Below, piece after piece: positions 17,932 through 55,084 of a DNA stretch of 64,000 nucleotides. The stretch is from assembly GCA_964035575.1 (NCBI GenBank), contig OZ037836.1, positions 2,046,001-2,110,000 of the forward strand. Reading direction: 5' to 3'. Source of the stretch: Rhynchopus sp. YZ270_cl-10 (Eukaryota). The position numbers were made by a program, and so were the translations under genes. The notes beneath the pieces are model-generated. The model saw only the letters and a list, made by a program, of their open reading frames with translations. It had not been told where the DNA came from and made no database searches. How positions within the stretch are numbered: position 1 is the first letter of the stretch; the number at the start of each line of letters is the position of its first letter.

Positions 17932-19178
17932 CGTCAGAGAGGTTCGAAGGTCTTGCAGATCCCAAGCTGGTTCATTTGTTTCTGCAGGCGGAGGTTGTTA
18001 CTGAGATCCCCGATGAATTATTGCGAGGGGTCGTGTTCTCAGAACTTGATCTCAGTGGTGTGTCAGGTGTTACCTGTGTAGGTTACAACTTCCTCCAATA
18101 CTGCCCTTCATTGCACACAGCTGACTTATCTGGGTGGAACAATGTGACGCGGGTTGGGCACTCTTTTCTCTCCATCTGCAGCACATTGCGAAGCCTTGAC
18201 TTGTCTGGGTGGAACACTGTGACGCACGTAGGAGACTTCTTTCTCTGCAACTGCACCTCATTGACCACACTGGATATTTCAGGGTGGAACAATGTGACGC
18301 ATGTTGGGACCTGTTTCCTCACCAAATGCACTTCATTGCAAACCCTTGACCTATCTGGGTTAACGACTGTTCAGCACATTGGGACAGGCTTCCTGTATGG
18401 ATGCAAAATACGTACAAGCAGCATCAACGTCACCGGATCGAGCAGTGTTGTGTCAGAATATGTGCAGAGTCGTAACCTCGTGGATAAAATCAAGCACCAA
18501 TGTGTGTGCATGTGAGGCATGTGCATCTTTCGAGAGGCTAGGTACTCATTGCGATGTTCAGAGAACGAATTTTACATTGCACGTTGCACTTTGCCCTTAC
18601 CAAAACTAACGTCGCTTTTGACCGTTCTTTTGCTTTCCCAAGCTTCAAAGGTTAAAAAGAACGAGCGAAGAATAAATCATAGCTGGTGATGTTTTATACC
18701 CGATTCTTTGCCTCCTCGCGTGCGTACAGTGCTGCAACCAAGCATGTTGTCGCAGCCAGTATTTTTGTGCACTATTTGGGTTGGACCCCTGTAGTCATGA
18801 TAAAAGCGATGACGCCATTGAGCGACTCATAGGCGCATGAGTGATAGACGTTGTCGCTGTGGTATCCCGCCTCGCAGAGGAAGGTGTTTTTGACACAGCA
18901 ACTTCGTGAGTTAGTATCGGTCTGTGAATCAAATTGAAAACGGCGTGTTTGCGCGTCATATCGCAGAGGATAGAGAAACTGAAAAGTATTGAAAATAACA
19001 GAAGTATGGTGCCAAGTTCACAAGGAACAGATAGTGGAGCACATCCTCTGTCCACATTACTATAACGAAGCTTTCAAAAACAAAACAAAAGACCTCTCCC
19101 CTTGTAACTGTTTGTTGTCTCTTGCGTACTCTCACCCCCAATTGAAAACACCTGCACAAAACAGAGAGACACAAAACC

Positions 19179-20105
19179 ATGGAAATATGTGTGAAGAGCT
19201 TTGACGGAGAGAAGTACACAGTCGAGGTGGGTGTGGATGATACAACTGCGGACATACGGCGGAAGGTGGCGACTGCAGCAGAGTTGTGCGAAGACGGCTT
19301 TGACATGAGCTTCGGAGAGAAGGTGCTGGCCGAAGGAGACTACATCACGCAGCTGAGTGCTGGGGACACAGTTGTGCTGACGAAGACGAAGTCGCAGAAG
19401 GACGACGCCATTGCAGCTCTTCGTGACTTGGGTGAGACAAGGCTGACGTCAGAGAGGTTCCAAGGTCTGAGAGATCCCAAGCTGGTTCATTTGTTTCTGC
19501 AGGCGGAAGTTGTGACTGAGATCCCCGATAAATTCTTGTCAGGTGGCACGTTCTCAGAACTTGATCTCAGTGGTGTGCCAGGTGTTACCTGTATAGGTTA
19601 CACCGTTTTCCAATTCTGCAGCGTATTGCACACCGCTGATTTATCTGGGTGGAGCAATGTGACGTACATTGGGATGTACTTCCTCTCCATCTGCAGCACA
19701 TTGCGAACCCTTGACTTGTCTGGGTGGAACAATGTGAGGCACGTAGGGGACTTCTTCCTCTGCAACTGCACCTCATTGACCACACTGGATATTTCTGGGT
19801 GGAACAGTGTGACGCGGGTTGGTGATTACTTTCTCTCCAACTGCACCTCATTGACCACGCTGGATATTTCTGGGTGGAACAATGTGACGCATGTTGGGAT
19901 ATGTTTCCTCACCAAATGTACTTCATTGCAAACCCTTGACTTATCTGGGTTGACGACTGTTCAGCACATTGAGGAAGGCTTCCTAAAAGGATGTAAAATA
20001 CCCACAAGCAGCATCAACGTCACGGGATCGAGCAGTGTTGTGTCAGAATATGTGCAGAGCCCTAACCTCGTGGACAAAATCAAGCACAAATGTGTGTGCA
20101 TGTGA
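19179..20105 (+). CDS. UBL-LRR-CaaX protein, family B, 308 aa
   Basis: MEICVKSFDGEKYTVEV UBL; 25-aa LRRs LTTLDISGWNNVTxxxxxFLxxCTS; ends KIKHKCVCM. Confidence 0.93.
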   Translation: MEICVKSFDGEKYTVEVGVDDTTADIRRKVATAAELCEDGFDMSFGEKVLAEGDYITQLSAGDTVVLTKTKSQKDDAIAALRDLGETRLTSERFQGLRDPKLVHLFLQAEVVTEIPDKFLSGGTFSELDLSGVPGVTCIGYTVFQFCSVLHTADLSGWSNVTYIGMYFLSICSTLRTLDLSGWNNVRHVGDFFLCNCTSLTTLDISGWNSVTRVGDYFLSNCTSLTTLDISGWNNVTHVGICFLTKCTSLQTLDLSGLTTVQHIEEGFLKGCKIPTSSINVTGSSSVVSEYVQSPNLVDKIKHKCVCM

Positions 20106-20245
20106 GGCATGTGCATCTTTCGAGAGGCTAGACGCTCATTGCGATGTTCAGAGAAGGACTTTTACATTGCACGTTGCACTTTGCCCTTACCAGAGCTAGC
20201 CTCGCTTTTGACCGTTCTTTTGCTTTCCGAACCCTCAAGGCTTAA

Positions 20246-21455: not shown

Positions 21456-22187
21456 TTAATGGAACGAGCGAAGAATAAAACATAGCTGGTGATGTTTTAT
21501 ACCCAATTCTTTGCCTCCTCGCGTGCGTACAGTGCTGCAACCAAGCATGTTGTTGTCGCAGCCAGTATTTTTGTGCATTATTTCCACCAACGTATTTTTG
21601 TGTTTTTTTACACGACCATTCTGTGCTAAGACCTAAGCCTGCTCGGTGGCCCCTGCACAACTTGCTTTGTGCCCATTGATCGTTCAAGGTTTCGTTTTTT
21701 GGTCCCAGAGTGGAAACAAAACAGCACCATTTCCCTCTACATTTTGTGTTCTCAGCTTTTTGTGTTGTGAGAGAAATGTGCAGGGTTGGACCCCTGTAGT
21801 CATGATAAAAGCGATGACGCCATTGAGCGACTCATAGGCGCATGAGTGATAGACGTTGTCGCTGTGGTATCCCGCCTCGCAGAGGAAGGTGTTTTTTGAC
21901 ACAGCAACTTCGTGAGTCAGTATCGGTCTGCGAATCTAATTGAAAACGGCGTGTTTGCGCGTCATATCGCAGAGGATAGAGAAACTGAAAAGTCATGAAA
22001 ATAACAAAAGTATGGTACCAAGTTCACAAGGAACACATAGTGGAGCACATTCTCGGGTGTCCCCACTAATGCAACGAAGTTTTCAAAAACAAAACAAAAG
22101 ACCTCTCCCCTTGTAACTGTTTGTTGTCTCTTGCGCACTCTCACCCCCAATTGAAAACACCTGCACAAAACAGAGAGACACAAAACC

Positions 22188-23171
22188 ATGGAAATATGTG
22201 TGAAGAGCTTTGACGGAGAGAAGTACACAGTCGAGGTGGGTGTGGATGATACAACTGCGGACATACGGCGGAAGGTGGCGACTGCAGCAGAGTTGTGCGA
22301 AGACGGCTTTGACATGAGCTTCGGAGAGAAGGTGCTGGCCGAAGGAGACTACATCACGCAGCTGAGTGCTGGGGACGCAGTTGTGCTGACGAAGACGAAG
22401 TCGCAGAAGGACGACGCCATTGCAGCTCTTCGTGACTTGGGTGAGACAAGGCTGACGTCAGAGAGGCTCGAAGGTCTGAGAGATCCCAAGCTGGTTCATT
22501 TGTTTCTGCAGGCGGAGGTTGTTACTGAGATCCCTCGTAGATGCTTGTCAGGTCGCACGTTCTCAGAACTTGATCTCAGTGGTGTGCCAGGTGTGACTGC
22601 AATAGGCGACTACGTCCTCCAAAACTGCACCTCATTGCACACTGCTGACTTATCTGGGTGGAGCAATGTAGGACTCCTGAAGAGTTTCTTCCTCTCCAAA
22701 TGCACTGCCTTGCGCACCCTTGACTTGTCTGGGTGGAACAATGTGAGGCACGTAGGGGACTTCTTCCTCATGAACTGCACCTCATTGACCACACTGGATA
22801 TTTCCGGGTGGAACAGTGTGACGCGGGTTGGTGATTACTTTCTCTCCAACTGCACCTCATTGACGACGCTGGATATTTCTGGGTGGAACAATGTGACACG
22901 GGTTGATATGTACTTTCTCTACCACTGCACCTCATTGACCACACTGGATATTTCTGGGTGGAACAATGTGACGCATGTTGGGACCTGCTTCCTCTCCAAA
23001 TGCACTGCATTGCGAACACTTGACTTATCTGGGTTGACGACTGTTCAGCACATTGGGAAAGGCTTCCTAAAAGGATGCAAAATACCCACAAGCAGCATCA
23101 ACATCACCGGATCGAGCAGTGTTGTGTCAGACAAAATGGACAAAATCAAGCACAAATGTGTGTGCATGTGA
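22188..23171 (+). CDS. UBL-LRR-CaaX protein, family B, 327 aa
   Basis: Same architecture; short tail SDKMDKIKHKCVCM. Confidence 0.93.
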   Translation: MEICVKSFDGEKYTVEVGVDDTTADIRRKVATAAELCEDGFDMSFGEKVLAEGDYITQLSAGDAVVLTKTKSQKDDAIAALRDLGETRLTSERLEGLRDPKLVHLFLQAEVVTEIPRRCLSGRTFSELDLSGVPGVTAIGDYVLQNCTSLHTADLSGWSNVGLLKSFFLSKCTALRTLDLSGWNNVRHVGDFFLMNCTSLTTLDISGWNSVTRVGDYFLSNCTSLTTLDISGWNNVTRVDMYFLYHCTSLTTLDISGWNNVTHVGTCFLSKCTALRTLDLSGLTTVQHIGKGFLKGCKIPTSSINITGSSSVVSDKMDKIKHKCVCM

Positions 23172-24089
23172 GGCATGTGCATCTTTCGAGAGGCTACGCT
23201 CATTGCGATGTTCAGGGAACGAATTTTACAGTGCACGTTGCGCTTTGCCCTTACCAGAGCTAGCCTCGCTTTTGACCATTCTTTCCCAAGCTTCAGGGTT
23301 AAAAAGAACGAGAAGAAAAAAAACAAAACTGGTGATGTTTTATACCCAATTCTTTGCCTCCTCGCGTGCGTACAGTGCTGCAACCAAGCATGTTGTCGTC
23401 GCAGCCAGTATTTTTGTGCATTATTTCCACCAACATATTTTTGTGTGTTTTTCTTCCACATGCGCTTGGTTTTTGTGTTCATTAATTTTTATCAAAAAGC
23501 TTTAGTTTCGACAGCGAAACGTTTCCCCATGTATTGCACGGGAAACAATATATATGACAAACAGGTGCAGGGTGGTTCCGTGCATATCATAGAACCCGGC
23601 ACATTTGAGTGTCTTCCAAAAACCAAAAGTGTTGTGTGTGAAGTTTTGAAGGAAGGAAAAATAAAAGTTGAGAGAGCAATGTGCAGGGTTGGACCCCTGT
23701 AGTCATGATAAAAGCGATGACGCCATTGAGCGACTCATAGGCGCATGAGTGATAGACGTTGTCGCTGTGGTATCCCGCCTCGCAGAGGAAGGTGTTTTTG
23801 ACACAGCAACTTCGTGAGTCAGTATCGGTCTGCGAATCAAATTGAAAACGGCGTGTTTGCGCGTCATATCGCAGAGGATAGAGAAACTGAAAAGTCTTGC
23901 AAATAACAAAAGTATGGTGCCAAGTTCACAAGGAACACATAGTGGAGCACATCCTCGGGTGTCCACACTAATACAACGAAGCTTTCAAAAACAAAACAAA
24001 AGACCTCTCCCCTTGCAACTGTTTGTTGTCTCTTGCGTACTCTCACCCCCAATTGAAAACACCTGCACAAAACAGAGAGACACAAAACC

Positions 24090-25016
24090 ATGGAAATATG
24101 TGTGAAGAGCTTTGACGGAGAGAAGTGCACAGTCGAGGTGGGTGTGGATGATACAACTGCGGACATACGGCGGAAGGTGGCGTCTGCAGCAGAGTTGTGC
24201 GAAGACGGCTTTGACATGAGCTTCGGTGGGAAGCTGCTGGCCGAAGGAGACGACACGACGCAGCTGAGTGCTGGGGACACAGTTGTGCTGATGAAGACGA
24301 AGTCGCAGAAGGACGACGCCATTGCAGCTCTTCGTGACTTGGGTGAGACATGGCTGACGTCAGAGAGATTCGAAGGTCTGAGAGATCCCAAGCTGGTTCA
24401 TTTGTTTCTGCAGGCGGAGGTTGTTACTGAGATACCCTTCAACTGCTTGAGAGGTGCCACGTTCTCAGAACTTGATCTCAGTGGTGTGCCAGGTGTTACC
24501 TGTGTAGGTTTCGAATTCCTCACCCACTGCCCCTCATTGCACAGAGCTGATTTGTCTGGGTGGAACAATGTCACACTTATTTCAGGGTTCTTACTCTGCC
24601 ACTGCACCTCATTGCGCACTGTTGATTTATCTGGGTGGAGCAATGTGACACGCACTGGGAGTGCGTTCCTCAACGACTGCAGGGCATTGACCACACTGGA
24701 TATTTCAGGGTGGAACAATGTGACACGTGTTGATGACTGCTTCCTCATGAACTGCACCTCATTGACCACGCTGGATATTTCTGGGTGGAGAACTGTAAGG
24801 CACATAGGGAGCGACTTCCTCTACAACTGCAGCGCATTGAAAACCCTTGACTTATCTGGGTTGACGACTGTTCAGCACATTGGGAGAGACTTCCTAATAG
24901 GATGTAAAATACCCACAAGCAGCATCAACGTCACCGGATCGAGCAGTGTTGTGTCAGAATATGTACAGAACCCTAACCTCGTGGACAAAATCAAGCACAA
25001 ATGTGTGTGCATGTGA
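24090..25016 (+). CDS. UBL-LRR-CaaX protein, family B, 308 aa
   Basis: Same architecture with a divergent set of LRR variable segments. Confidence 0.93.
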   Translation: MEICVKSFDGEKCTVEVGVDDTTADIRRKVASAAELCEDGFDMSFGGKLLAEGDDTTQLSAGDTVVLMKTKSQKDDAIAALRDLGETWLTSERFEGLRDPKLVHLFLQAEVVTEIPFNCLRGATFSELDLSGVPGVTCVGFEFLTHCPSLHRADLSGWNNVTLISGFLLCHCTSLRTVDLSGWSNVTRTGSAFLNDCRALTTLDISGWNNVTRVDDCFLMNCTSLTTLDISGWRTVRHIGSDFLYNCSALKTLDLSGLTTVQHIGRDFLIGCKIPTSSINVTGSSSVVSEYVQNPNLVDKIKHKCVCM

Positions 25017-25445
25017 GGCATGTGCATCTTTCGAGAGGCTAGGCGCTCATTGCGATGTTTAGAGAACGACTTTTACAGTGCACGTTGCACTTTGCCCCTA
25101 CCAGAGCTAGCCTCGCTTTTGACCGTTCTTTCCCAAGCTTCAAGGTTAAAAGGAATGAGAATAATAAAAACAAAACTGGTGATGTTTTATACCCAATTCT
25201 TTGCCTCCTCGCGTGCGTACAGTGCTGCAACCAAGCATGTTGTCGTCGCAGCCAGTATTTTTGTGCATTATTTCCACCAACGTATTTTTGTGCTTTTTTT
25301 GCACGACCATTCTGTGCTAAGACCTAACTGCACAAATTGATGTTTGTGCCCATTCATCGTTCAAGGTTTGATTCTTTAGTTCCAAAGTGGAAACAAAACA
25401 GCACCATTTCCCTTTTCATTTTGTGTAGTCAGTTTTTTGTTGAAC

Positions 25446-26104
25446 TGGTGTGATTTTTCTAAAAAAAAGGTGTAAAAAAGGTCCTTCTAAGGTCCTTCTA
25501 AGGTATGGTGGTTTTCCTTAGGGCATTTCCTTAAGGAAAACGTGACTTTTTCCCGAGCTTTCTGTACCCAGTACCCAGTACCAAAGGGCCGCTGGAGGGT
25601 TCCGAGACGGCGGTAGCCTGCGACACTATGTCATGGGAAGGAGGGATACCAGCTTGCGCCGCAGGCGCACGGTACTTTTATTGTTTCGGCGTATCCTTTT
25701 TTCTCACTCTTCGTTGGGTTCTACGAGCTCCGCCCCGTCAAATGGTGGGGTGTAAAATTCGCATCTACGCAAACTGCCCCACGTTCCTTTTGTACTTTTC
25801 CTTCAGACGTCAAGTACTGACCATATTTTGCACACAGAACCTGAAAATGGCCTGTAAAAACTGACACATGCATTTTAGGTCAAAAATACTCATTTCTGAG
25901 CGCAAAGTGACCCCATCACAGCACGTACAGGCTCCGGTGCACCGAAATCAAAAAAAAATATTTTTGATTTTTTGTGGGGGAAAATTTCTGGCCACACAAA
26001 ACCACCAAAAAGATGTACACAAAATAATTTTAGCACCCCCCTAAAAAAAAGGTGTAAAAAAGGTCCTTCTAAGGTATACCACTACCCTTGTATAGGTCAC
26101 ACCA
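25446..26104. mobile_element. TG...CA-ended element, family E
   Basis: TIR TGGTGTGA / TCACACCA; 5-bp TSD TGAAC (25441-25445, 26105-26109); ~35-bp subterminal direct repeats; internal similarity to 36990-37098 and 37861-37915. Confidence 0.7.
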
Positions 26105-26676
26105 TGAACAAGATAAAACAAAAAAGCTTGCGTTTCTTTTATCGAACAGATTCTATTCTCCGCCCCGTACCCAAAACGTAAACACCACTTTGAATCAGAA
26201 AAATATTTTCTTTTCTTTTTTCTTCCACATGCGCTTGGTTTTTGTGTTCATTTATTTTTATCAAAAAGCATTAGTTTCGACAGCGAAACGTTTCCCCATG
26301 TATTGCACGGGAAACAATATATATGACAAACAGGTGCAGGGTGGTTCCGTGCAAATCATAGAACCCGGCACCTTGTGTGTCTTCCAAAAACCAAAAGTGT
26401 TGTGTGTGAAGTTTTGAAGGAAGGAAAAATAAAAGTTGAGAGACAAATGTGCAGGGTTGGACCCCTGTAGTTATGATAAAAGCGATGAAAATAACAAAAG
26501 TATGGTGCCAAGTTCACAAGGAACACATAGTGGAGCACATCCTCAGGTGTCCACACTAATACAACGAAGCTTTCAAAACAAAACAAAAGACCTCTCCCCT
26601 TGCAACTGTTTGTTGTCTCTTGCGTACTCTTGCCCCCAATTGAAAACACCTGCACAAAACAGAGAGACACAAAACC

Positions 26677-27585
26677 ATGGAAATATGTGTGAAGAGCTTT
26701 GACGGAGAGAAGTACACAGTCGAGGTGGGTGTGGATGATACAACTGCGGACATACGGCGGAAGGTGGCGTCTGCAGCAGAGTTGTGCGAAGACGGCTTTG
26801 ACATGAGCTTCGGTGGGAAGCTGCTGGCCGAAGGAGACGACACGACGCAGCTGAGTGCTGGGGACACAGTTGTGCTGATGAAGACGAAGTCGCAGAAGGA
26901 CGACGCCATTGCAGCTCTTCGTGACTTGGGTGAGACAAGGCTGACGTCAGAGAGGCTCGAAGGTCTGAGAGATCCCAAGCTGGTTCATTTGTTTCTGCAG
27001 GCGGAGGTTGTTACTGAGATCCCGTATGAATTCTTGTCACATGCCACGTTCTCAGAACTTGATCTCAGTGGTGTGTCAGGTGTGACTGCAATAGGCGACT
27101 GCGTCCTCCAAAGCTGCACCTCATTGCACACTGCTGACTTATCTGGGTGGAGCAATGTAGGACTCCTGAAGAGTTTCTTCCTCTCCAAATGCACTGCCTT
27201 GCGAACCCTTGACTTGTCTGGGTGGAACAATGTGACCCGGGTTGATATGTACTTTCTCTCCAACTGCACCTCGTTGACCACACTGGATATTTCTGGGTGG
27301 AACAATGTGACGCAGCTTGGGCACTGTTTTCTCGCCGGCTGCACTGCACTGCGAATACTTGACTTGTCTGGGTGGAACAATCTGACACAGGTTGATGACT
27401 ACTTTCTGTCCAACTGCAGCGCATTGCAAACACTTGACCTATCTGGATGGACGACTGTTCAGCACATTGGGAAACGCTTCCTAAAAGGATGCAACATACC
27501 CACAAGCAGCATCAACATCACCGGATCGAGCAGTGTTGTGTCAGACAAAATGGACAAAATCAAGCACAAATGTGTGTGCATGTGA
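26677..27585 (+). CDS. UBL-LRR-CaaX protein, family B, 302 aa
   Basis: Same architecture; ends KIKHKCVCM. Confidence 0.93.
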   Translation: MEICVKSFDGEKYTVEVGVDDTTADIRRKVASAAELCEDGFDMSFGGKLLAEGDDTTQLSAGDTVVLMKTKSQKDDAIAALRDLGETRLTSERLEGLRDPKLVHLFLQAEVVTEIPYEFLSHATFSELDLSGVSGVTAIGDCVLQSCTSLHTADLSGWSNVGLLKSFFLSKCTALRTLDLSGWNNVTRVDMYFLSNCTSLTTLDISGWNNVTQLGHCFLAGCTALRILDLSGWNNLTQVDDYFLSNCSALQTLDLSGWTTVQHIGKRFLKGCNIPTSSINITGSSSVVSDKMDKIKHKCVCM

Positions 27586-31097: not shown

Positions 31098-32498
31098 CAA
31101 AAGGGCAGCCTCAGATGCTCCAAAGACGTATGGCGACAAAGAAGGAAACAAACGAGGAGACAATTCATGAGCCGCACTGGCCCCGCAGAACCTCAGCCTG
31201 AGCGCTTTGCTGGAAGAAAGGCCTCCTTCGCATCTCGGACGTCCACGACAGAAGGAACTGCCACTCACCAGAGCAGGCTTGTATGGTCATGGCGAAGGCG
31301 CAAGCTCACTCTGTCAGCGCTAACGGGTTCTTACATGGGGGGGAGCTGCGAGGTGTGTGGGGAGGACCTGGCACAACACACGAACAGTGCCGTGCCTGCC
31401 CCTTCTCTTCCTCTCAAATGAAAAGTGTTTCTTTTGTTTTCTGTTTTCACTTCGAAATGCTGTTTTCACAAATATTCGGACACAAATTGAAACTGCGTTC
31501 CTACTTTTCCTTTTTATGTTTTTCCCCTACCCCCGCAAACAATGAAGCAACAAAGCAATAAAGACAAAAGGGAGAGGTTGTGGTGAAACGCACACACCTC
31601 GACCTGTCGGTGAAGTGTGGCTCTCCACTCCAACCCGCCCTGGATGAGAACATACAACAAAGGCAGGGAGTAGGGGTACGGTGTTCAATTTCCTTTTAGC
31701 ATTGCATGTAATCATGAAACAAAACAAAAGACCTCTCCCCTTGTAACTGTTTGTTGTCTCTTGCATACTCTTACCCCCAATTGAAAACACCTGCACAAAA
31801 CAGAGAGACAAAGCCATGGAAATATGTGTGGAGAGCTTTGACGGAGAGAAGTACACAGTCGAGGTGGGTGTGGATGATACAACTGCGGACATACGGCGGA
31901 AGGTGGCGACTGCAGCAGAGTTGTGCGAAGACGGCTTCGACATGAGCTTCGGAGAGAAGCTGCTGGCCGAAGGAGACTACATCACGCAGCTGAGTGCTGG
32001 GGACACAGTTGTGCTGACGAAGACGAAGTCGCAGAAGGACGACGCCATTGCAGCTCTTCGTGACTTGGGTGAGACGGCTGACGTCAGAGAGGTTCAAGTG
32101 TCTGAGAGATCCCAAGCTGGTTCATTTGTTTCTGCAGGCGGAGGTTGTTACTGAGATCCCCGATCAAATCTTGGCAGGTGGCACGTTCTCAGAACTTGAT
32201 CTCAGTGGTGTGCCAGGTGTGACTCAAATAGAAAGAGGTTTCCTCCAATGCTGCACCTCATTGCACACTGCTGACTTATCTGGGTGAGCAATGTGACACT
32301 CCTTAAGAGTTTCGTCCTCTTCAAATGCACTGCCTTGCGCACCCTTGACTTGTCTGGGTGGAACAATGTGAGGCACGTACGGGACTTCTTTCTCTGCAAC
32401 TGCACCTCGTTGACGACACTGGATATTTCAGGGTGGAACAATGTTACGCAGCTTGGTGATTACTTCCTCTACAACTGCACCTCATTGCCCACGCTGGA

Positions 32499-32590
32499 GG
32501 GGACAAAAACGTGAGGTGGCAGCCCCCCGGCATTTTTGCCCTGGCGTCCCCGGATATAATCTCTTTTTTGAGTGAACGAAGGCCACGCGT
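32499..32590 (+). ncRNA. Possible HDV-like ribozyme variant
   Basis: P1 GGGGAC/GUCCCC followed by GG; P2 GUGGC/GCCAC; P3 GCC/GGC; P4 CUC-U6-GAG; J4/2 C-GAA (C32577); L3 atypically extended by the hairpin GGCAUUUUUGCC. Confidence 0.5.
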
Positions 32591-33111
32591 GGGATGGTTG
32601 CATTGCACTTTTGCAAACCCGGGCACATGATACTGGAGGGTCCAAAGCAACTGGAGGAGGTGTATGCTGGGCTTTTTGTGCCCTCAGGGATTTAAGCGAC
32701 CCTGCGCCTACTTTACGACCATGCACAGCTTTTGCTTTTCTTTTCTTTGCTTTTCTTTGCTTTTTGTAGGTGCTAACCTGCGGCAGTGGTTTGCATCAGT
32801 TGGGTGTTCCACTCACCGCAGTTTAGAGAATTAGGAGATGCCAGTCATTCGTTCCTCCCATTGGAATGACTGGTGGTTTTATTGTTGTTTATTTCTTTTG
32901 ACGCTGCCAGAGTGCGGACCTTGAACTGGCTTATATACAACCTAGGCCACCAGCGGTGGTATACGGCCCCTGTTCACTTAGGTGTCGCTTCTTTGTTGGG
33001 TATAAGTCAGCAAATGGGATCAAGCCACTCTCTGGCACACCGTGGTGCCATCCTTCCCTTTTGCTGGTTTTTCTTTTTGCGGGGGTGGATCACGTTTTTC
33101 AAGGTTAATAT
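32499..33111 (+). mobile_element. Short retroposon-like insertion with possible 5' HDV-like ribozyme
   Basis: 18-bp TSD CTCATTGCCCACGCTGGA (32481-32498, 33112-33129); no TIR or credible ORF; starts GGGGAC. Confidence 0.8.
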
Positions 33112-34997
33112 CTCATTGCCCACGCTGGATATTTCTGGGTGGAACAATGTGACGCATGTTGGGACCTGCTTCCTCTCCAAATGCACTGCATTGCAAACCC
33201 TTGACTTATCTGGGTTGACGACTGTTCAGCACATTGGGAAACGCTTCCTAAAAGGATGTAAAATACCCACCAGCAGCATCAACATCACCGGATCGAGCAG
33301 TGTTGTGTCAGACAAAATGGACAAAATCAAGCACAAATGTGTGTGCATGTGAGGCATGTGCATCTTTCGAGAGGCTAGGCGCTCATTGCGATGTTCAGAG
33401 AACGAATTTTACATTGCACGTTGCACTTTGCCCATGCCAAAAATATGAAACTGGAGATGTTTTTTATGCACAGTTCTTTGCATCCTCGCGTGCGTACACT
33501 GATACAACCAAGCATGTTGTTGTTTTGTACTAAGTTAAGACAAATGCTTTGTGGTGGGAAATGATTCAAAGATTTGTTACCTCACGTTTTGAGAGTCAAC
33601 ATAGTGTTGTGAAAGAGAAAACCGACGCAGGAGCCTTTTATCGGAAACTGTTTTCTTCTCCACTAACACACACAAACACTGGACAGAAAAAGCTTTTTTC
33701 ACACGTTTTTTTTTCTGTTCTCATATGAATTTGCTGTTCTCCTTTTTTAACTCTCTGCTTTTCATTTTTTCAAAAATGGATTTAAGAATGCCTTGCCCTG
33801 GTCAGGACAAGGCGTTGCGAGCGGGAGGTACGCAATCGACGTGACGCATGCACATCTGAGGACGAACACTGTGGAGTTATAGTCTGGTCGCGATAGTTTT
33901 CGCGAACTTTCCTGCAGTCAACGCAGGGAAAGAATTAATCAACGATGTGATACAGGATATGGGTGGTTCAGTGATTCCACAGAACCGACACCATTCAACC
34001 AAAACCAAATCAATTAAAAAAGACAGAGTTTTTGAAGTAAGGAAAGAAAAACGTTACGATTTTATTCCCTTCCCCGTTTATTGCGCACTCACCTCATTTC
34101 TGAGAATTTTCTGTCTTGGTTGTGCATATTTTTTGCCTTCGGAATTTTCCTCGTTTCCGGATCATTTTTTTAAAAAGCATTTTCAAAGAAGTAAGAGTCG
34201 CCACCGTGACAGGCTTGGCGCTAACGAGCAGAGACCTTCCTCGCAGAGGAAGGTGTTTTGACACAGCAACTTCGTGAGTCAGTATCGGTCTGCGAATCAA
34301 ATTGAAAACGGCGTGTTTGCGCGTCATATCGAAGAGGATAGAGAAACTGAAAAGTCATGAAAATACAAAACTGAAGAACAGCCACTCTGCCTCAGCAGGG
34401 AAAGTGAACGAAAGGATGGTGGCCACGTTCGACACATTGCACATCCTCGGGTGTCCACACTAATACAACGAAGCTTTCAAAAAAACAAAACAAAAGACCT
34501 CTCGCCTTGTCACTGTTTGCTGTCTCTTGCACACCACACGCACACCTAAACACGAAGTTCTGCTTCCTTTCTCTGCAGACAAACACACATGTCTACTGAG
34601 CCTACACACTCGTTGAGTGCCTCACAAAACCTCAAATTACTTCTTCTTTGCTTTTTATTTGTTGTCTTCGCGCTTTATCATTGTTGTTGGGAAATAAAAC
34701 CTGGAACAGTATTCTTCCCAAAGTCTGAGGGAAACTCAATACGTCATTTTGCGAAGACTTCTTTCCTGTTGGTGCGTGGGGTGTCTGCAACGTCTTGTTA
34801 ATGTACTTCGTACATGTTCACACAATAGCCCCTCAACCGTGTGGTGACGTTTCTGCGTTCGTACGACCTCCACCAATGCTTTCCTCCACGCACTCCGTGC
34901 CTTCTTCCCACCATGATTGCCTCCTTCAGTGTTCTGATGTCCTCTCCTACTCCCACAACCCCACCACACAACAGAGCAACACAAAAAAGAAGGCAAA

Positions 34998-37853: not shown

Positions 37854-37948
37854 TCGGGAAAGAAAAATTTTTTTTTTTCGATTTTTTGTGGGCAAAAATT
37901 GGCCGAAAAATTTTTCGCCCCCCCCGGATCCCCCAAAAAAAGTCACCT

Positions 37949-42522: not shown

Positions 42523-45500
42523 ATGCTGCGTCTCGCTGTGGCGTTGCTGCTTGCGACGTTTGCAGCAGGATCCGATGCGAAGGTGTTCTACTGGTTCAAG
42601 GCGACGAAGTCCTGGCAGAAGAGCCGTGGCAAGGAAAGCGGGAGGGAGGAGTACACCATGAAAGGATGGGTGAAGGTGGATAACGGAGTGAAAAAGGATC
42701 TTGGCTGTATCAAGTGCGACTCGTACTCCTCGTGCACAAAGACAGGAACATGGGCTTCATCCGGTACACAGAGCTTGTCCGGTGCTCTGAGGATGAGAAC
42801 CTACCTCGATGCGTGGGAGGATGACAACGGTTCGAGGTGCTCCTTCAAAAAAGGATGGTGGATCAACGACGATGACGACCGCTGTCGTGAGGAGTGCAGC
42901 ATCAACATGAAGTCTTACGCAATGGGCAGAACACACACATACAGGTGCAAGGACAACAAAGGTAAGGCCTATCTTGAGGTGCAGTTCCGTTGGTGGCCAG
43001 ACACCACTGCTGCACCGGACACACCCGCACCACCGACAAGGGCCCCACGTACACGGGCCCCACCTACACGGGCCCCACGGACACGGTCCCCACCGACACC
43101 GTCACCACCGACTCCGAGTCCTCCGACACCAGCACCACCCACTCCAAGTCCTGCAACACCATCACCACCGACTCCAAGTCCTCCGACACCTTCGCCACCG
43201 ACTCCGAGTCCTCCAACACCATCTCCACCGACTCCAAGTCCTCCAACCCCGTCGCCACCGACACCAGCACCACCGACTCCCAGTCCACCTACTCCGAGTC
43301 CTCCAACCCCGTCGCCACCGACACCATCACCACCGACTCCAAGTCCTCCGACACCATCACCACCCACTCCGAGTCCTCCGACACCTTCGCCACCGACACC
43401 GTCACCACCGACTCCGAGTCCTCCAACACCATCACCACCGACTCCGAGTCCTCCAACACCATCACCACCGACTCCAAGTCCTCCGACACCTTCGCCACCG
43501 ACACCGTCACCACCGACTCCGTCGCCACCCACTCCAAGTCCTCCAACACCATCTCCACTGACTCCAAGTCCACCGACTCCGTCGCCACCGACACCGTCAC
43601 CACCGACTCCGAGTCCTCCAACACCATCACCACCGACTCCAAGTCCTCCGACACCTTCGCCACCGACACCGTCACCACCGACTCCGTCGCCACCCACTCC
43701 AAGTCCTCCAACACCATCTCCACCGACTCCAAGTCCACCGACTCCGTCGCCACCGACACCGTCACCACCGACTCCGAGTCCTCCAACACCATCTCCACCG
43801 ACTCCAAGTCCACCGACTCCGTCGCCACCCACTCCGAGTCCTCCAACCCCGTCGCCACCGACACCAGCACCACCGACTCCGAGTCCTCCAACACCATCTC
43901 CACCGACTCCAAGTCCACCGACTCCGTCGCCACCCACTCCGAGTCCTCCAACCCCGTCGCCACCGACACCGTCACCACCGACTCCGAGTCCTCCAACACC
44001 ATCTCCACCGACTCCAAGTCCACCGACTCCGTCGCCACCGACACCGTCACCACCGACTCCGAGTCCTCCAACACCATCTCCACCGACTCCAAGTCCACCG
44101 ACTCCGTCGCCACCCACTCCGAGTCCTCCAACCCCGTCGCCACCGACACCATCTCCACCGACTCCCAGTCCACCGACTCCGAGTCCTCCAACCCCGTCGC
44201 CACCGACACCGTCACCACCGACTCCGTCGCCACCGACTCCGAGTCCTCCAACACCATCTCCACCGACTCCAAGTCCACCGACTCCGTCGCCACCCACTCC
44301 GAGTCCTCCAACCCCGTCGCCACCGACACCAGCACCACCGACTCCGAGTCCTCCAACACCATCTCCACCGACTCCAAGTCCTCCAACCCCGTCGCCACCG
44401 ACACCATCACCACCGACTCCGTCACCACCCACTCCAAGTCCTCCAACACCGTCACCACCCACTCCGAGTCCTCCAACCCCGTCGCCACCGACACCAGCAC
44501 CACCGACTCCCAGTCCACCGACTCCGAGTCCTCCGACACCTTCGCCACCGACACCGTCACCACCGACTCCGAGTCCTCCAACACCATCTCCACCGACTCC
44601 AAGTCCTCCAACCCCGTCGCCACCGACACCAGCACCACCGACTCCCAGTCCACCGACTCCGAGTCCTCCGACACCTTCGCCACCGACACCGTCACCACCG
44701 ACTCCGAGTCCTCCAACACCATCTCCACCGACTCCAAGTCCTCCAACCCCGTCGCCACCGACACCAGCACCACCGACTCCCAGTCCACCGACTCCGAGTC
44801 CTCCGACACCTTCGCCACCGACAACGTCACCACCGACTCCGAGTCCTCCAACACCATCTCCACCGACTCCAAGTCCTCCAACCCCGTCGCCACCGACACC
44901 GTCACCACCGACACCGTCACCACCGACTCCGAGTCCTCCAACACCATCTCCACCGACTCCAAGTCCACCGACTCCGTCGCCACCCACTCCGAGTCCTCCA
45001 ACCCCGTCGCCACCGACCCCAGCACCACCGACTCCAAGTCCTCCAACACCGTCGCCACCTACTCCAAGTCCTCCGACACCATCACCACCGACTCCAAGTC
45101 CTCCGACACCATCACCACCGACTCCAAGTCCTCCAACACCATCACCACCGACTCCGAGTCCTCCAACACCATCTCCACCGACTCCAAGTCCTCCAACCCC
45201 GTCGCCACCGACACCATCACCACCGACTCCGTCACCACCCACTCCAAGTCCTCCAACACCGTCACCACCCACTCCGAGTCCTCCAACCCCGTCGCCACCG
45301 ACACCAGCACCACCGACTCCCAGTCCACCGACTCCGAGTCCTCCAACCCCGTCGCCACCGACACCATCTCCACCGACTCCAAGTCCTCCGACACCTTCGC
45401 CACCGACACCGTCACCACCGACTCCGAGTCCTCCAACACCATCTCCACCGACTCCAAGTCCTCCAACCCCGTCGCCACCGACACCAGCACCACCGACTCC

Positions 45501-48500
45501 CAGTCCACCGACTCCGAGTCCTCCAACCCCGTCGCCACCGACCCCAGCACCACCGACTCCAAGTCCTCCAACACCGTCGCCACCTACTCCAAGTCCTCCG
45601 ACACCATCACCACCGACTCCAAGTCCTCCAACACCATCACCACCGACTCCAAGTCCTCCGACACCATCACCACCGACTCCGAGTCCTCCAACCCCGTCGC
45701 CACCGACACCAGCACCACCGACTCCAAGTCCTCCGACAACATCACCACCGACTCCAAGTCCTCCGACACCGTCACCACCGACTCCAAGTCCTCCGACACC
45801 ATCACCACCGACTCCAAGTCCTCCAACACCATCACCACCGACTACAAGTCCTCCGACACCATCACCACCGACTCCATGTCCTCCGACACCGTCACCACCG
45901 ACTCCAAGTCCTCCGACAACATCACCACCGACTCCAAGTCCTCCGACACCGTCACCACCGACTCCAAGTCCTCCGACACCGTCACCACCGACTCCAAGTC
46001 CTCCGACACCATCACCACCGACTCCAAGTCCTCCAACACCATCACCACCGACTACAAGTCCTCCGACACCATCACCACCGACTCCAAGTCCTCCGACACC
46101 ATCACCACCGACTCCAAGTCCTCCGACACCATCACCACCGAATCCAAGTCCTCCGACACCAGCACCACCGACTCCAAGTCCTCCGACACCATCACCACCG
46201 ACTCCAAGTCCTCCGACACCATCACCACCGACTCCGAGTCCTCCAACCCCGTCGCCACCGACACCAGCACCACCGACTCCCAGTCCACCGACTCCGAGTC
46301 CTCGAACCCCGTCGCCACCGACACCATCTCCACCGACTCCAAGTCCTCCGACACCTTCGCCACCGACACCGTCACCACCGACTCCGAGTCCTCCAACACC
46401 ATCTCCACCGACTCCAAGTCCTCCAACCCCGTCGCCACCGACACCAGCACCACCGACTCCGAGTCCTCCAACACCGTCGCCACCGACACCATCACCACCG
46501 ACTCCGAGTCCTCCAACACCGTCGCCACCTACTCCAAGTCCTCCGACACCATCACCACCGACTCCAAGTCCACCGACTCCCAGTCCACCGACTCCGAGTC
46601 CTCCAACACCGTCGCCACCTACTCCAAGTCCTCCGACACCATCACCACCGACTCCAAGTCCACCAACTCCTTCACCGCCGACACCGTCACCACCGACTCC
46701 GAGTCCACCTACTCCCAGTCCACCGACACTATCACCACCGACTCCGGGTACGCCCACTACTTCCCCTGTGTCACCATCACCGCTGACACCAAGTCCACCT
46801 ACCTCCAGTCCAGCGACACCTTCAATGCTTACACGGTCACCATTGACGTTGCCACCTGTAACACCGTCACCCCCAACATCGGTTCCTGTCACGCCTTCAC
46901 CACCCTCAATTACTCCTGTAGTGCTTTTTCCTGACACACGGGTGCCGGTGACGCTGTCACCCAGCACATTGGAACCTGTCATGCCATCGCCAGCAACATT
47001 TGCCCCTGGAACACTTTCACCTCCCACACTAGCACCTGTAACAGCATCGACACCAACATTTTCACCTGTCACATGGTCACCTCCTACACCTTCACCTGTG
47101 ATAGTGTCTCCACCAACATTCGCACCTGTAACGTTTTCTCCTCCGACACATGCTCTTGTAACCGTATCCCCTCTCACAACTTCACCACTGACTACGGCAC
47201 CGTCAGAGACTCCTTTGCCGAGCACAGAGGCTCCGGGAACATCGATACCGTTGCTTTCGACGTCGCCGCTGACGTCTCCCCCTTCTGCACCTGCCACAGG
47301 ATCCCCAGACACATTTGCTCCTGGAACAGCGGTACCCATCACATCAGACCCGGCAACAGGTGTGCCCGACACACTGACATCTGTGGTAGCCTCATCCACT
47401 GCACCAGAGACACAAGCGCCATCAACACAGGTGCCCACGTTTCAAGGCACAATGACCCCAGTCGCAGTAATCACATTCCAGCCACCAACCGAAGCCAGTT
47501 CTGCGTCGCCGATAACTGCAAGCCCGATAACAGGCACCCCCGACACGCTGGCGCCTGCAACTGGAGACACACAAGCTCCGTCTGTGACACGAGTACCGAG
47601 GTTGCCACGCACGATGGTGCCGAATCCAGTCCTGGTGACGTTCCAGCCGCCCACAGACGCCGCTTCTGTGCAGGAGACGACAACACCTGGCACGCTTACG
47701 TTCAGCCCAACGACGGTCTCGCCAGACACGACTGCACCTGGCACGCTTACGTTCAGCCCAACGACGGTCTCGCCAGACACGACTGCACCGATTGCAGCAG
47801 GTGACAGGACGTTTTCGCCTATTGTGCCGGCGACATTTGGACCAGATCGCGGCACAGCAACACAAGGGCTGCTTGTGGAGTGTCCTGTGGGGGCAACGGC
47901 TTCTGACATGCGCAGTCATGCTGTGACGGTGAACGTGTGGCACGGGTCTGGCACTGCTGTGGACACAGAGGTGGCTGTGGCAAGCACTGCAGGGGAGAAG
48001 GAGTACCTGGGCATATGGGCGTCAAAGCAAGACGGCTTTGTGCAGTCGAGTGCACACCCGACACACGCAGGGGGGCAGCAGCTGCGTATGGGGAATGCAC
48101 ACTACTCCGGCAGTGGGAGCGAGACGCTGGAGCTGCAGGTGACGGACAAGAACACCCTGGAGACGGCGTCCTGCACAGTGTCCGTGTCTGCGGTGGCGGC
48201 AGCTGCTGTGCAGCAGTCTGCTGTGGCAGAGACGACACCTGCGATTGGTGTGGTGAGTGTCAGCTCAGCAGCGTCGGGGTCCACACTAGGCCTGGTGGGC
48301 ACGCCGCAGTGCGGTGTGAAGGCAGACCTGCCCTTTGGTGTGCACCCACTTCAGTTCGAGCTTGACGGAAGCCAGCACCTGGGAGCTGTGGCAGGGAACA
48401 CAGTCAGCATGGTGGTGCTTGCAGGGCTTGCGTACAGTGTGTCGTGGGTGGTGGGGACACAGACAAAGTCAGTCTTCCTGCAGCAGCTGCTGGCGTATCA

Positions 48501-49836
48501 GGGGTTCACAGCGTTCCCGTCTGTGCTCCTGTACTTCTTTGTGTTCCTGTACCAAGGAACGGTGTACGCGTCACAGCACCTTGTCGTCTACCCTAAGACG
48601 CTTGCGCACTTCCTCGGGGGACTTGCAGGCGTGATTGCGTGCGTTGCCGTGCCGGTGTGGGTCGGGTGGAAGATACGGCGCTCTGTGGCGTGGCGAGCGA
48701 CCTACACTCCAGAGTCTGCGGAGGGGCCTGGTGTGGTGCGACTGTTCTTCCTCGGCAAGGGCGAGTGGGTGCCGACGGAGCGCGACGACCGCTTCAACAG
48801 TCGCTTCATGTCGATGCTGAAGCCGTACGGGGAGGAGACGTGCTGGTTTGTGGTGTTTTTCTTCCTGCTGATGTTCGCGGTCGGTGCACTGACAGTGCCG
48901 GACACAACAGACTTCATTGAGTGCGGGCACCTGCGCATGGGGATGGCAGTGCTGTTTGCTGTGATGGCGCTGTTTGTGGGGTGGCTGCGGCCGTACTGCC
49001 GTGTGCGCGACAACGCGCTGTACGTGGTGCTGTACTCTGTGGCTGCAGTGGCAATGGTGATGCAGGGCCTGGGCTACTACAATGAAGACCTGGACGACCC
49101 GAAGTTCACACTCGCAATGAACATTCTGACAGTTGCGTTGGCGTTGGTGATTGTGAAGGCAGTAGCGGACCTGCTCTGCGATGTGTACGTTGTGTGGACA
49201 GCACGTCGCCGCCTTCTGCAGGAGGCACTGTGGGCGAAGCAGGACGCATCACGTGTGTCTGCACGTGAGATAGACCAGCAGGGCTACCTGTCTGTGTTTG
49301 GCGAGTTGTCTGTTGCAGACACGCAGACGAAGCAGCTGCCGCCACTTCCGTCTCCGCCACCACGTGGTGGAGGCATGTTCACAGAGTTTGGTCTTCCATC
49401 CGAGACGAGCCCTCAGTACTTTGACGACGTGGGGGACGTGGAGTCGAACCCAAGCAGCCCTGTGCAGGATGTGCCACAGTCGTATGCCCACTCGCCACTG
49501 GGCGTGTCGAGTGGGCCGTTCCCCACGAAGTCCCTGCCAAGTGAGGATGTGGTGCACGTCACACCTGTGCGGCGTTCGGCAGGTGTCTCGCTCTTCAACG
49601 AACCTCCTGCGCAGCCGATGGGGTTGCTGGCGTTTGAGGCTGGCGGTCTGGGGTTCTCGCTGTCGGGACCTAGCTCGGTGCTCGCACCCACGTCGCCTGC
49701 ACAGGAGCCACCTCCTTCGGACGCGAGCCTGAGTGGAGTGTCGTTGAGTGACAACAACGTTGGGACGTCCACCTCTTCGAAGCCCTCGTGGGGCAAAGGA
49801 GCGCCACTGACGGAGGACTACGTCTCGCATGTGTGA
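42523..49836 (+). CDS. Large surface glycoprotein: signal peptide, Cys-rich head, ~240 PPTPS extensin-like repeats, S/T/P stalk, multi-pass TM domain, cytosolic tail (~2437 aa)
   Basis: ATG at 42523 after a CAG acceptor, followed by hydrophobic [19 protein letters not shown]; 7 or more hydrophobic segments at ~48380-49200. Confidence 0.9.
43081..46746 (+). repeat. Coding 15-bp tandem repeat (TPSPP)n
   Basis: Unit ACNCCN(TCN/AGT)CCNCCN with extensive synonymous variation. Confidence 0.98.
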
Positions 49837-53320: not shown

Positions 53321-53926
53321 TGGGAGGCAATGGTCACAAGCCATAGCAGTCTGCAATTGAGAGAGGCCCGTCTGTTGTGATCCGATAACTTCAAAAAATA
53401 TCCCAATATTGTCTCTGGTGTCCTCAAAACACCTTCCTGGCACCCAAAAGCTAGAAAATATCGTGTAGTTTGGCTTCTCCGCGGGGGGGGGGGAATCCCG
53501 GGGGGGATAACCGATTTTTCTGGGTGAGAATGTAAGGGGGAGAGATAAATCTCACGCCATACGTTGTTTTTGCATCCTGCCTGTCCCCACATACAACCAC
53601 ACCACAACAGAGGTGACGTGGGACTTAATGTACTGGGAGATCACTTACACCTTCACCACCCACATATGTACAGTTCCCCAAGCAGGGCAAGCGTGTGGGT
53701 TCCGTCGGCACTCCTCACTGCGGAGCGGATAGTCAAGGCAGTGCGTGCCCAGCTGCTCCCGAAGGACGCGTCTCTGTACCTGGTACAGTGGGAGCGTGCA
53801 TTGGGCTCAGTGGGCTCACTTGTCGCGTACATGTCTGCCTTCTTCTTGTCTCCTTCCCGTTCTGCGAGTTGTGTTTCTCCTTGCCCCACCCAAAACACCT
53901 TGCACAAAACAGAGAGACACGAAACC

Positions 53927-55084
53927 ATGGAAATATGTGTGAAGAGCTTTGACGGAGAGAAGTACACAGTCGAGGTGGGTGTGGATGATACAACTGCGGA
54001 CATACGGCGGAAGGTGGCGACTGCAGCAGAGTTGTGCGAAGACGGCTTTGACATGAGCTTCGGAGAGAAGCTGCTGGCCGAAGGAGACGACACGACGCAG
54101 CTGAGTGCTGGGGACACAGTTGTGCTGACGAAGACGAAGTCGCAGAAGGACGACGCCATTGCAGCTCTTCGTGACTTGGGTGAGACAAGGCTGACGTCAG
54201 ACAGTTTCAACGGTCTGGAAGATCCCAAGCTGGTTCATATGTTTCTGCAGGCGGAGGTTGTTACTGAGATCCCTGATCAATTCTTGGAAGGTGGCACGTT
54301 CGAAGAACTTGATCTCAGTGGTGTGCCAGGTGTGACTCAAATAGAAGGAGGTTTCCTCCAATGCTGCACCTTATTGCACACTGCTGATTTATCTGGGTGG
54401 AGCAATGTGATGCGGGTTGATAATTTCTTTCTCTTCAACTGCACCTCATTGACCACACTGGATATTTCTGGGTGGCACAATGTAAGGCAAATAGGAGACG
54501 ACTTTCTCTCCTACTGCAGCGCATTGACAACACTGGATATTTCTGTGTTGAACAATGTGACGCAAATAGGAGACGATTTTTTCTCCAGCTGCAGCGCATT
54601 GCAAACCCTTGACTTGTCTGGGTGGAACAATGTGACGCGGGTTTATGAGCGCTTTCTCTTCAGCTGCACCTCACTGACCACACTGGATATTTCTGGGTGG
54701 AACAATGTGACGCAGCTTGGGCACTCTTTTCTCTCCAGCTGCAGCGCATTGCAAACCCTTGACTTGTCTGGGTGGAACAATGTAACGCGGGTTGATGATT
54801 TCTTTCTCTTCAACTGCACGTCATTGACCACACTGGATATTTCTGGGTGGAACAATGTGAGGCAAATAGGGAGGCACTTCCTCAAGAACTGCAGCGCATT
54901 GAAAACACTTGACCTATCTGGGTTGACGACTGTTCAGCACATTGGGAAAGACTTCCTAAAAGGATGCACAATACCCACAAGCAGCATCAACGTCACCGGA
55001 TCGAGCAGTGTTGTGTCAGAATATGTGCAGAGCCAGAGCGGTAGCCTCGTGGACGATACCAAGTGCAAATGTGTGTGCATGTGA
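53927..55084 (+). CDS. UBL-LRR-CaaX protein, family B, 385 aa
   Basis: ATG 53927 matches the paralogous start; longest family-B LRR set; ends TKCKCVCM. Confidence 0.93.
   Translation: MEICVKSFDGEKYTVEVGVDDTTADIRRKVATAAELCEDGFDMSFGEKLLAEGDDTTQLSAGDTVVLTKTKSQKDDAIAALRDLGETRLTSDSFNGLEDPKLVHMFLQAEVVTEIPDQFLEGGTFEELDLSGVPGVTQIEGGFLQCCTLLHTADLSGWSNVMRVDNFFLFNCTSLTTLDISGWHNVRQIGDDFLSYCSALTTLDISVLNNVTQIGDDFFSSCSALQTLDLSGWNNVTRVYERFLFSCTSLTTLDISGWNNVTQLGHSFLSSCSALQTLDLSGWNNVTRVDDFFLFNCTSLTTLDISGWNNVRQIGRHFLKNCSALKTLDLSGLTTVQHIGKDFLKGCTIPTSSINVTGSSSVVSEYVQSQSGSLVDDTKCKCVCM

Follow-up and report, generated by a model that had tools for sequence, protein, structure and literature searches.

We analyzed a 64,000-nucleotide stretch of the genome of Rhynchopus sp. 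YZ270_cl-10 (assembly GCA_964035575.1, contig OZ037836.1, positions 2,046,001 to 2,110,000 of the forward strand), referred to below as the window, with positions counted from its first letter. The window carries an array of genes whose products join a ubiquitin-like (UBL) N-terminus to leucine-rich repeats (LRRs) and which belong to two families, A and B. The UBL-LRR copies are mutually mosaic and differ by whole 75-bp repeats. The most likely cause, to which we assign a probability of about 0.85, is germline gene conversion together with unequal crossing-over between neighbours.

The UBL-LRR gene array and its products

Twelve UBL-LRR-related loci were found in the window by tblastn with one query per family: ten intact genes (four of family A and six of family B) and two interrupted copies, both of family B. 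The window behaves as eukaryotic DNA. The gene order is one-stranded, the plus strand carrying every long open reading frame (ORF) of interest in the window, and the leaders are pyrimidine-rich, features that give a kinetoplastid-like impression. Rfam gave no matches on the window. The proteins share a plan of a ~70-residue ubiquitin-like N-terminus, a helical linker, 25-residue repeats and a family-specific tail. Genes are named here by family and start position, and units of the repeat are written u0, u1 and so on.

The six intact family B genes, all on the plus strand, are B19179 (19179..20105; 308 aa, six units, tail end CVCM), B22188 (22188..23171; 327 aa, seven units, short tail), B24090 (24090..25016; 308 aa, six units), B26677 (26677..27585; 302 aa, six units, short tail), B28504 (28504..29505; 333 aa, seven units, long tail) and B53927 (53927..55084; 385 aa, nine units with a two-unit, 150-bp super-repeat). 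B22188 is a mosaic of 19179-like and 26677/28504-like sequence and B26677 is a three-parent mosaic, and B24090 has the most divergent LRR of the array, yet its UBL tract is common to B26677. Family A, also on the plus strand, consists of A12895 (12895..14157; 420 aa, with the UBL, ten LRR units, a cap and a basic tail ending KRQRHAQ), A34998 (34998..35888; 296 aa, five units, a mosaic), A40167 (40167..41207; 346 aa, seven units) and A56067 (56067..57182; 371 aa, eight units). The repeat unit is exactly 25 aa (75 bp) in all ten intact genes, and differences in length among copies come from whole 25-residue units and from two variants of the tail.

An earlier, sequence-only reading of this DNA had reported lengths stepping by ~25 aa in both families, and these steps are borne out. 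B53927 is a further family B gene absent from its list, and two of its family A genes, A12895 and A56067, lie outside the 17952..55084 interval to which it referred. Its shortest family B length, 283 aa, corresponds to an interrupted copy read across a 2744-bp insertion. The 5' part of this copy (14900..15187, plus strand) comprises codons 1-96 and is 95.8% identical by tblastn to residues 1-96 of B28504; the 3' part (17932..18515, plus strand) comprises five LRR units and the long tail. Joining 14900-15187 (96 codons) to 17952-18515 (187 codons) gives the 283 aa. The insertion itself (15188..17931, no strand assigned) interrupts the gene at codon 96, and a 20-bp direct duplication borders it (copies 15168-15187 and 17932-17951). 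It holds a tandem array of 17.2 copies of a 134-bp period with 95% matches (15272-17574) and may be a mobile element or a satellite; it could formally be drawn as a GT...AG intron.

The second interrupted copy is a family B pseudogene at 31816..33349 (plus strand) with two frameshifts, an in-frame stop and a 613-bp insertion, and is itself mosaic. This insertion (32499-33111) lies within an LRR unit between copies of an 18-bp duplication (32481-32498 and 33112-33129). We considered an intron and rejected it, as no GT or GC...AG pair fits the duplication. Peptides obtained by reading into the insert end three proteins elsewhere in the genome (P0067 ...LEGTKT, P0072 ...LKGTKT and P0055 ...GVPGYNLFFE), and the same 613-bp element therefore seemingly lies in other copies as well. 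Further copies of the ends of either insertion were not found within the window.

The repeats are of the BspA/TpLRR type by both profile cut-off and solenoid fold. Pfam LRR_5 (PF13306, cut-off 27.7 bits) scored 74.2 bits in B28504, 124.3 in A12895 and 110.1 in B53927, with E-values of 1e-20 to 4e-36 among the members tested (3.7e-36 in A12895). In an AlphaFold model of B28504 the predicted local distance difference test score (pLDDT) exceeds 90 at residues 120-300 and falls below 50 at residues 35-72, part of the UBL, of which two strands and one helix are modelled before this point. The top Foldseek matches to the model (E 7e-6 to 3e-4) were 4fs7, 4h09 and 4gt6, which are BspA-type LRR proteins from gut bacteria, and 6mlx, a Treponema TpLRR protein (template modelling score 0.70 by target length, root-mean-square deviation 3.8 A).

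For the N-terminus, the ubiquitin family profile PF00240 gave 24.1 and 21.1 bits, below its cut-off of 25.4, and ubiquitin residues 1-57 align without gaps but weakly (8.9 bits per repeat). PF00240 assignments are precomputed for many paralogues, and the best ESM Atlas scores (0.79-0.86, under the 0.9 level and thus leads only) pointed to clusters joining DUF285/BspA with ubiquitin domains. No di-glycine follows the UBL, the chain continuing into linker and LRR, which makes the UBL a built-in domain rather than part of a ubiquitin precursor. It is possible that such a non-cleavable UBL docks the proteins to ubiquitin-binding partners.

None of the intact proteins has an N-terminal signal peptide, because the chain begins with the UBL, and none has a transmembrane segment. 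All six intact family B genes end in ...KCVCM, a CaaX-like box whose CVCM would be farnesylated, and all four family A genes end in PKRSRDESP(E/Q)QAHKRQRH(A/T)Q. The latter appears to fit the bipartite basic pattern of nuclear signals, and the stretch would serve as a nuclear signal. Proteins of both families are thus predicted, from their sequences, to be intracellular.

Mosaic structure of the paralogues

B26677 matches three different relatives along its length. At the DNA level its codons 31-70 are 100% identical to B24090, its codons 101-150 are 100% identical to B28504, and its tail is 100% identical to B22188, with the following 800 bp at 97-99% to the same gene. Deriving it from these three relatives requires at least five switches. 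Identity matrices calculated per segment disagree between segments across family B. Over codons 1-60, B19179, B22188 and B28504 are 99-100% alike and B24090 and B26677 are 99% alike, with 96% between the two groups. In the first two repeats B22188, B26677 and B28504 are 95-100% alike, and B19179 and B24090 are only 69-77% identical to them. B22188 and B26677 are 97-100% alike from the tail through the following 800 bp, and beyond 300 bp downstream every other pair is at most 53% alike. In addition, u2 and u3 of B19179 are 96-97% identical to u2 and u3 of B22188.

Parsimony-informative sites in family B fall into blocks that back incompatible splits and are clustered along the gene. The pairwise homoplasy index for the family (56 informative sites) was 0.284, compared with 0.417 +/- 0.020 in permuted alignments, and none of 2000 permutations was as low; this was again 0/2000 for the five tandem copies without the distant B53927 (45 sites). 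Runs tests on triplets, which were kept only for windows starting at -100 since -200 to -100 is partly misaligned through one-base indels, gave five runs among 86 informative sites for B22188 against B26677 and B19179 (0/10,000 shuffles, p = 1e-4) and ten runs among 65 sites for B26677 (0/10,000 shuffles). Maximum likelihood trees of the 5' segment grouped B24090 with B26677 (support 96/95), those of the LRR start grouped B22188, B26677 and B28504 (94/95), and those of the 3' end grouped B22188 with B26677 (98/98). By approximately unbiased (AU) tests each segment rejects the clades of the other segments (p 0.0046-0.041), with the exception that the LRR start does not reject the B22188-B26677 clade (p 0.43). 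A GENECONV-like test of the longest identical run was significant in 3/15 pairs after Bonferroni correction; the UBL tract shared by B24090 and B26677 was significant only before correction (p 0.0085). Homologous exchange among the paralogues, by gene conversion and/or unequal crossing-over, is therefore statistically robust.

One block duplication is still visible. Positions 22694-24864 are 88.6% identical to 27106-29278 over 2179 bp, a two-gene duplication comprising the 3' end of B22188, the spacer and most of B24090 in one block and the 3' end of B26677, the spacer and most of B28504 in the other. Despite this, the LRR parts of B24090 and B28504 are only ~70-80% alike, and one of the two was likely overwritten after the block was duplicated.

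In family A, 17 sites show a two-plus-two split and all three possible partitions are present (9, 5 and 3 sites), clustered along the gene with p 0.017. A34998 u0 is 100% identical to A12895 and its u2 is 97% identical to u4 of A56067, which is out of register; its last unit and 3' flank are 99% identical to A40167 and its tail is 97% identical to A56067. The two interrupted copies of family B take part in exchange as well, sharing near-identical tracts with different intact genes. In the pseudogene at 31816, u0 is 97% identical in nucleotides to B53927, u2 is 94% identical to B19179, u4 is 97% identical to u5 of B22188, and the tail is 100% identical to B22188 and B26677. For units of the copy at 17932..18515, the closest units of intact family B genes are 82-94% identical.

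Painting the genes with a 60-nt sliding window gave exchange tracts of ~50-250 bp. Switches were placed in the UBL (nt 202-279) and the linker, within the first unit at nt 399-407, at junctions between units (nt 521-559) and also in the flanks. As switches occur in the UBL, in the linker and inside units, exchange is not limited to 75-bp cassettes. One switch could be mapped closely: u4 of B26677 is a hybrid whose left part, to about nt 60, follows u4 of B28504 and whose right part, from about nt 53, follows u5 of B28504, so the junction lies within the conserved Asn-Cys codons of the repeat. This junction is out of register and adds or removes exactly 75 bp. Two or four units have been duplicated internally in B53927, in A56067 (150 bp, u2 and u4 95% identical) and in A12895, which has an internal 300-bp periodicity (u2 and u6 87%, u4 and u8 88% identical). 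Out-of-register recombination does produce length steps of whole units.

In a tree of 51 units, all eight first units form one clade and all eight last units another (Shimodaira-Hasegawa-like approximate likelihood ratio test 97 each). Internal units sort into a few positional classes, and gene groupings inside these classes conflict. Units of the pseudogene at 31816 group with B53927 (unit 0), with B19179, B22188 and the copy 17898 (unit 2) and with B22188 (penultimate unit). Units at most one residue apart between different proteins amounted to 19 pairs among 486 units of 78 proteins, in a sample drawn from 120 proteins and clustered at 90% identity; 15 of the 19 pairs are at the same index, and hence in register, and seven involve genes of the window. 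This scarcity argues for local exchange between neighbours and not for a shared cassette library.

The sequence-only reading had proposed gene conversion or unequal crossover between paralogues, and the homoplasy, runs, AU and longest-run tests agree with it, the last in the three of 15 pairs that survived Bonferroni correction. All of the recurring cassettes that it named are present, including VTQIE(R/G)GFLQCC in the pseudogene at 31816 and in B53927, whose first units are 97% identical in nucleotides, and the three-part make-up that it saw in B26677 is confirmed in the DNA. The unit tree that it suggested, in which congruence with the gene tree would have spoken against exchange, is not congruent. 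Its placement of crossovers in the conserved LRR scaffold holds for the junction in the conserved repeat stretch of B26677 and is too narrow for the switches in the UBL and the linker. Its picture of 75-bp units as the currency of exchange does not stand, given tract lengths of ~50-250 bp and switches outside units, nor does that of a combinatorial cassette library, given that units group mainly by position and that only 19 near-identical pairs were found. Pseudogenes, which it had named as possible donors, do share near-identical tracts with intact genes, in exchanges that may have run either way.

Homogenised 5' module, repeat variation and other features of the window

The 5' part of the genes is far less diverged than the LRR. 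Mean synonymous divergence (dS) in family B is 0.031 over codons 1-115 against 0.324 over codons 116-177 (15 pairs), and in family A it is 0.012 in the 5' module against 0.133 in the LRR (six pairs). The 100 bp of non-coding sequence upstream of the five tandem family B copies is 96-99% identical. B53927, 24 kb off, is still 98% identical in codons 1-60, and its homology to the other family B copies starts only ~35 bp upstream of the ATG. Because synonymous sites and the non-coding leader are ~10-fold less diverged than the LRR, constraint at the protein level cannot account for the homogeneity of the 5' module, and frequent conversion is likely to homogenise it. Summed contig word depth in three public sequencing runs (X1-X3) was ~20- to 300-fold higher in UBL bins (26638-26949) than in copy-specific LRR bins (27340-27495) of B26677. 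This excess would fit a 5' module that is near-identical in many copies genome-wide, depth being no measure of copy number.

Alignment of 477 units from 78 family proteins gave the repeat scaffold L-D-L-S-G-W..V-T.I...F-L..C..L.T, with variable positions 7, 11, 13-15, 18, 19, 21, 22 and 24. The ratio of non-synonymous to synonymous divergence (dN/dS) at these variable positions, which were chosen by amino-acid entropy, was 1.22 in family B (140 unit pairs) and 1.48 in family A (112 pairs), with a range of 1.2-1.7. At scaffold positions it was 0.18 and 0.38, respectively, with a range of 0.11-0.38. As far as sequences can tell, this contrast fits diversifying or relaxed selection on one face of the repeat.

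Several other features of the window deserve mention. An ORF of 2507 codons at 42313-49836 (plus strand) has a signal-peptide-like start at an internal Met, more than 1000 residues of PPTPS-type repeats (a 30-bp period in 121.9 copies at 43090-46745) and several hydrophobic segments in its C-terminal part; it causes a guanine-cytosine skew of -0.5. Judging by these traits, its product looks like a giant mucin-like membrane protein. Two more genes of the ubiquitin system are present. The one just upstream of B53927 (52070-53320, plus strand) encodes a U-box protein, matched by PF04564 at E 2.8e-8, which also has a His/Gln-rich tract and three Cys-x2-Cys motifs. The other, at 4683-6278 (plus strand), encodes a 531-aa multi-UBL protein with ubiquitin-family matches (PF00240, E 2.1e-9), and a homologue search with this ORF gave no match. 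Two perfect microsatellites (100% matches) are present, (ACACAGT) in 41.7 copies at 10961-11252 and (TGTATACTG) in 49.1 copies at 61573-62014.

Explanations for the mosaics and comparison with known systems

The mosaics could be assembly chimeras, created where the assembler jumped between near-identical 5' modules or repeat scaffolds. The array is indeed highly repetitive, with ~500-bp 5' modules that are 96-100% identical and recur every 2-3 kb, and the public contigs on it are 54-366 bp long, no single one spanning a gene. However, a source contig of 2.16 Mb points to long reads. Many switches are located where the paralogues have diverged by 5-25%, which makes mis-joining unlikely there, and mosaics of this kind also occur among family A copies that are 5-43 kb apart. 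Logan contigs from four runs in three studies cover 21700-29800 at 99% identity or more (30/30 bins in X1, X2 and X3, 24/30 in X5), and B26677 is found at 100% identity in 30, 27, 30 and 24 of 30 bins in X1, X2, X3 and X5, respectively. A 232-bp contig of X5 (27285-27516), which comes from a different study, crosses the switch from 28504-like to 22188-like sequence without differences. This coverage weakens the case for chimeras and is no substitute for long reads; overall we consider chimeras improbable. Contig joints between non-equivalent paralogue positions (for example 26853 to 26971 and 22002 to 23952, with sides of 20-29 letters) were also seen and were judged to stem from other paralogues or to be de Bruijn artefacts and not rearrangements. 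Nested duplications of differing age combined with uneven constraint along the gene would explain the pattern without any exchange, and both ingredients exist, as the two-gene block duplication (88.6% over 2179 bp) is visible and constraint differs between scaffold and variable positions. Yet uneven constraint cannot produce incompatible groupings of segments, nor the ten-fold lower divergence of synonymous sites and leader next to the LRR, nor the five or more switches of B26677, which makes this the least credible of the alternatives.

Programmed or somatic assembly, by copy choice as in the variable lymphocyte receptors (VLRs) of lampreys or by pseudogene-donor mosaics as in the variant surface glycoproteins of trypanosomes, would create new combinations within clones. 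The sequence-only reading had drawn the lamprey analogy, and the likeness to lamprey and hagfish VLRs is that LRR modules are exchanged in a conversion-like manner over short homology in a conserved scaffold (PMC3308329). The short tracts guided by a conserved scaffold, a 5' module that could act as a homology anchor, and two interrupted copies holding tracts 94-100% identical to intact genes are all in keeping with such assembly. In VLR loci, however, an incomplete germline gene with non-coding intervening sequence is accompanied by hundreds of partial cassettes, lying in either orientation, which lymphocytes copy somatically (PMC3308329). The window holds ten complete ORFs and no incomplete recipient gene, and tblastn gave only whole or interrupted genes, all on the plus strand, with no partial or reverse-oriented cassettes, so the VLR analogy does not hold. 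The interrupted copies are complete genes broken by insertions that 18-20-bp duplications flank, and one of the two insertions lies outside the LRR, in the UBL-linker region. Moreover, the window's sequences are identical in runs from three studies, and reuse of cassettes across the family is rare. Lacking a signal peptide and carrying predicted intracellular address signals, the proteins are poor candidates for antigenic variation. Assembly of this kind is in our view very improbable.

Some points weigh against the preferred reading of germline conversion and unequal crossing-over, or against what has been built on it. The clades used in the AU tests were picked after the identity tables had been inspected, and the exchanges may have run in either direction and be of any age. 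In several tracts (for example u4 of B22188) the best partner in the window is only 85-91% identical, and the true one may be located in another part of the chromosome. Family A provides a weak signal (17 sites, p 0.017). Because of how the positions were chosen, the dN/dS contrast is in part circular, and its unit pairs are not independent. Logan contigs of at most 366 bp on the stretch, and at most 232 bp on B26677, cannot verify whole-gene mosaics, and some possibly come from the assembled sample. The UBL call is weak in its Pfam bits, which are below the cut-off, and in its pLDDT of less than 50 at residues 35-72, and we hold it with moderate confidence. Function and localisation are predictions from the sequences.

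The nearest parallels for the mechanism are plant resistance gene clusters of nucleotide-binding LRR (NLR) or LRR receptor genes, which likewise show tandem paralogues, conversion and changes in LRR number; their raised dN/dS at exposed LRR positions has a tentative counterpart in the contrast at variable positions here. Unequal crossing-over is known to alter LRR number in plant clusters of this kind. In the coffee SH3 cluster of coiled-coil NLR genes, paralogues have been reported to undergo gene conversion, with positive selection acting on solvent-exposed residues (PMC3113787). In contrast to the plant clusters, the repeats here are 25-aa BspA/TpLRR units with no NB-ARC or kinase domain, the proteins have a UBL head and a CaaX-like or basic tail, and the 5' module is strongly homogenised; the host appears to be unicellular, and the genes are all on one strand.

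In their repeats, the families resemble TvBspA of Trichomonas and EhBspA of Entamoeba, which also have LRR_5/TpLRR repeats and form very large, variable paralogous families. According to PMC2843621, which reports no TvBspA protein with a CAAX box, several EhBspA proteins have a C-terminal CAAX motif, both groups are discussed as surface proteins, and TvBspA pseudogenes are suggested, as a suggestion only, to be a reservoir for recombination. A term search of this paper did not find the word 'ubiquitin'. The UBL-LRR proteins differ from both groups in having neither signal peptide nor transmembrane segment, and recombination, only suggested there, is shown here. In overall layout, family B is like the F-box-LRR proteins of the FBXL2 type, with an N-terminal ubiquitin-system module, an LRR solenoid and a CaaX end. 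FBXL2-type proteins carry a small module of this sort at the N-terminus and a prenylated CaaX at the C-terminus. A GGTase3-FBXL2-SKP1 chain (6o60) was among the weak fold matches to the model (probability 0.51). The head differs, being a UBL here and not a SKP1-binding domain, as does the LRR subtype, and Pfam found no F-box.

The window's genes belong to a wider family. A homologue search returned at least 500 proteins at E <= 0.001; they come from ENA records or from the window itself, many of them on the same 2.16-Mb contig. Among the 120 matches listed, 84 end in C-x-x-X (67 of these in CVCM), 11 have a basic tail and 25 have other ends. In a library clustered at 50%, 785 clusters match at E <= 1e-30; the best 150 of the 785 are mostly long multi-LRR proteins matched in the repeats only, and the UBL-linker module was found at E <= 1e-5 in 27 of 145 library matches beyond the 120 matches listed. 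Literature searches turned up no description of a UBL plus BspA-LRR family in titles or abstract openings. This is a family of at least 500 members whose architecture is apparently undescribed.

Birth-and-death evolution with gene conversion in the germline would shape both tandem families, and the binding surface of the LRR would be kept varied by exchange combined with selection, diversifying or relaxed, at ~10 variable positions per repeat. As a mechanism of diversification this is textbook and is unlike assembly of the adaptive-immune type. The array provides a quantified example of LRR repertoire diversification in a single-celled eukaryote, by short-tract exchange between neighbours and by gain and loss of repeats at conserved junctions, with a 5' module that is homogenised and sharply set off from the variable binding domain. 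One possibility, which we put forward tentatively and think rather unlikely, is that the 500 or more UBL-LRR genes form an intracellular recognition repertoire in which the conversion-homogenised 5' module serves as a recombination anchor, local exchange and selection diversify the hypervariable LRR faces, and interchangeable tail tags, a farnesyl box or a nuclear signal, route the binders to different compartments. Such a repertoire could be a protist counterpart of plant NLR clusters or an effector arsenal, wired to ubiquitin. If this were true, a recognition or effector repertoire tied to ubiquitin signalling would be a new system for study.

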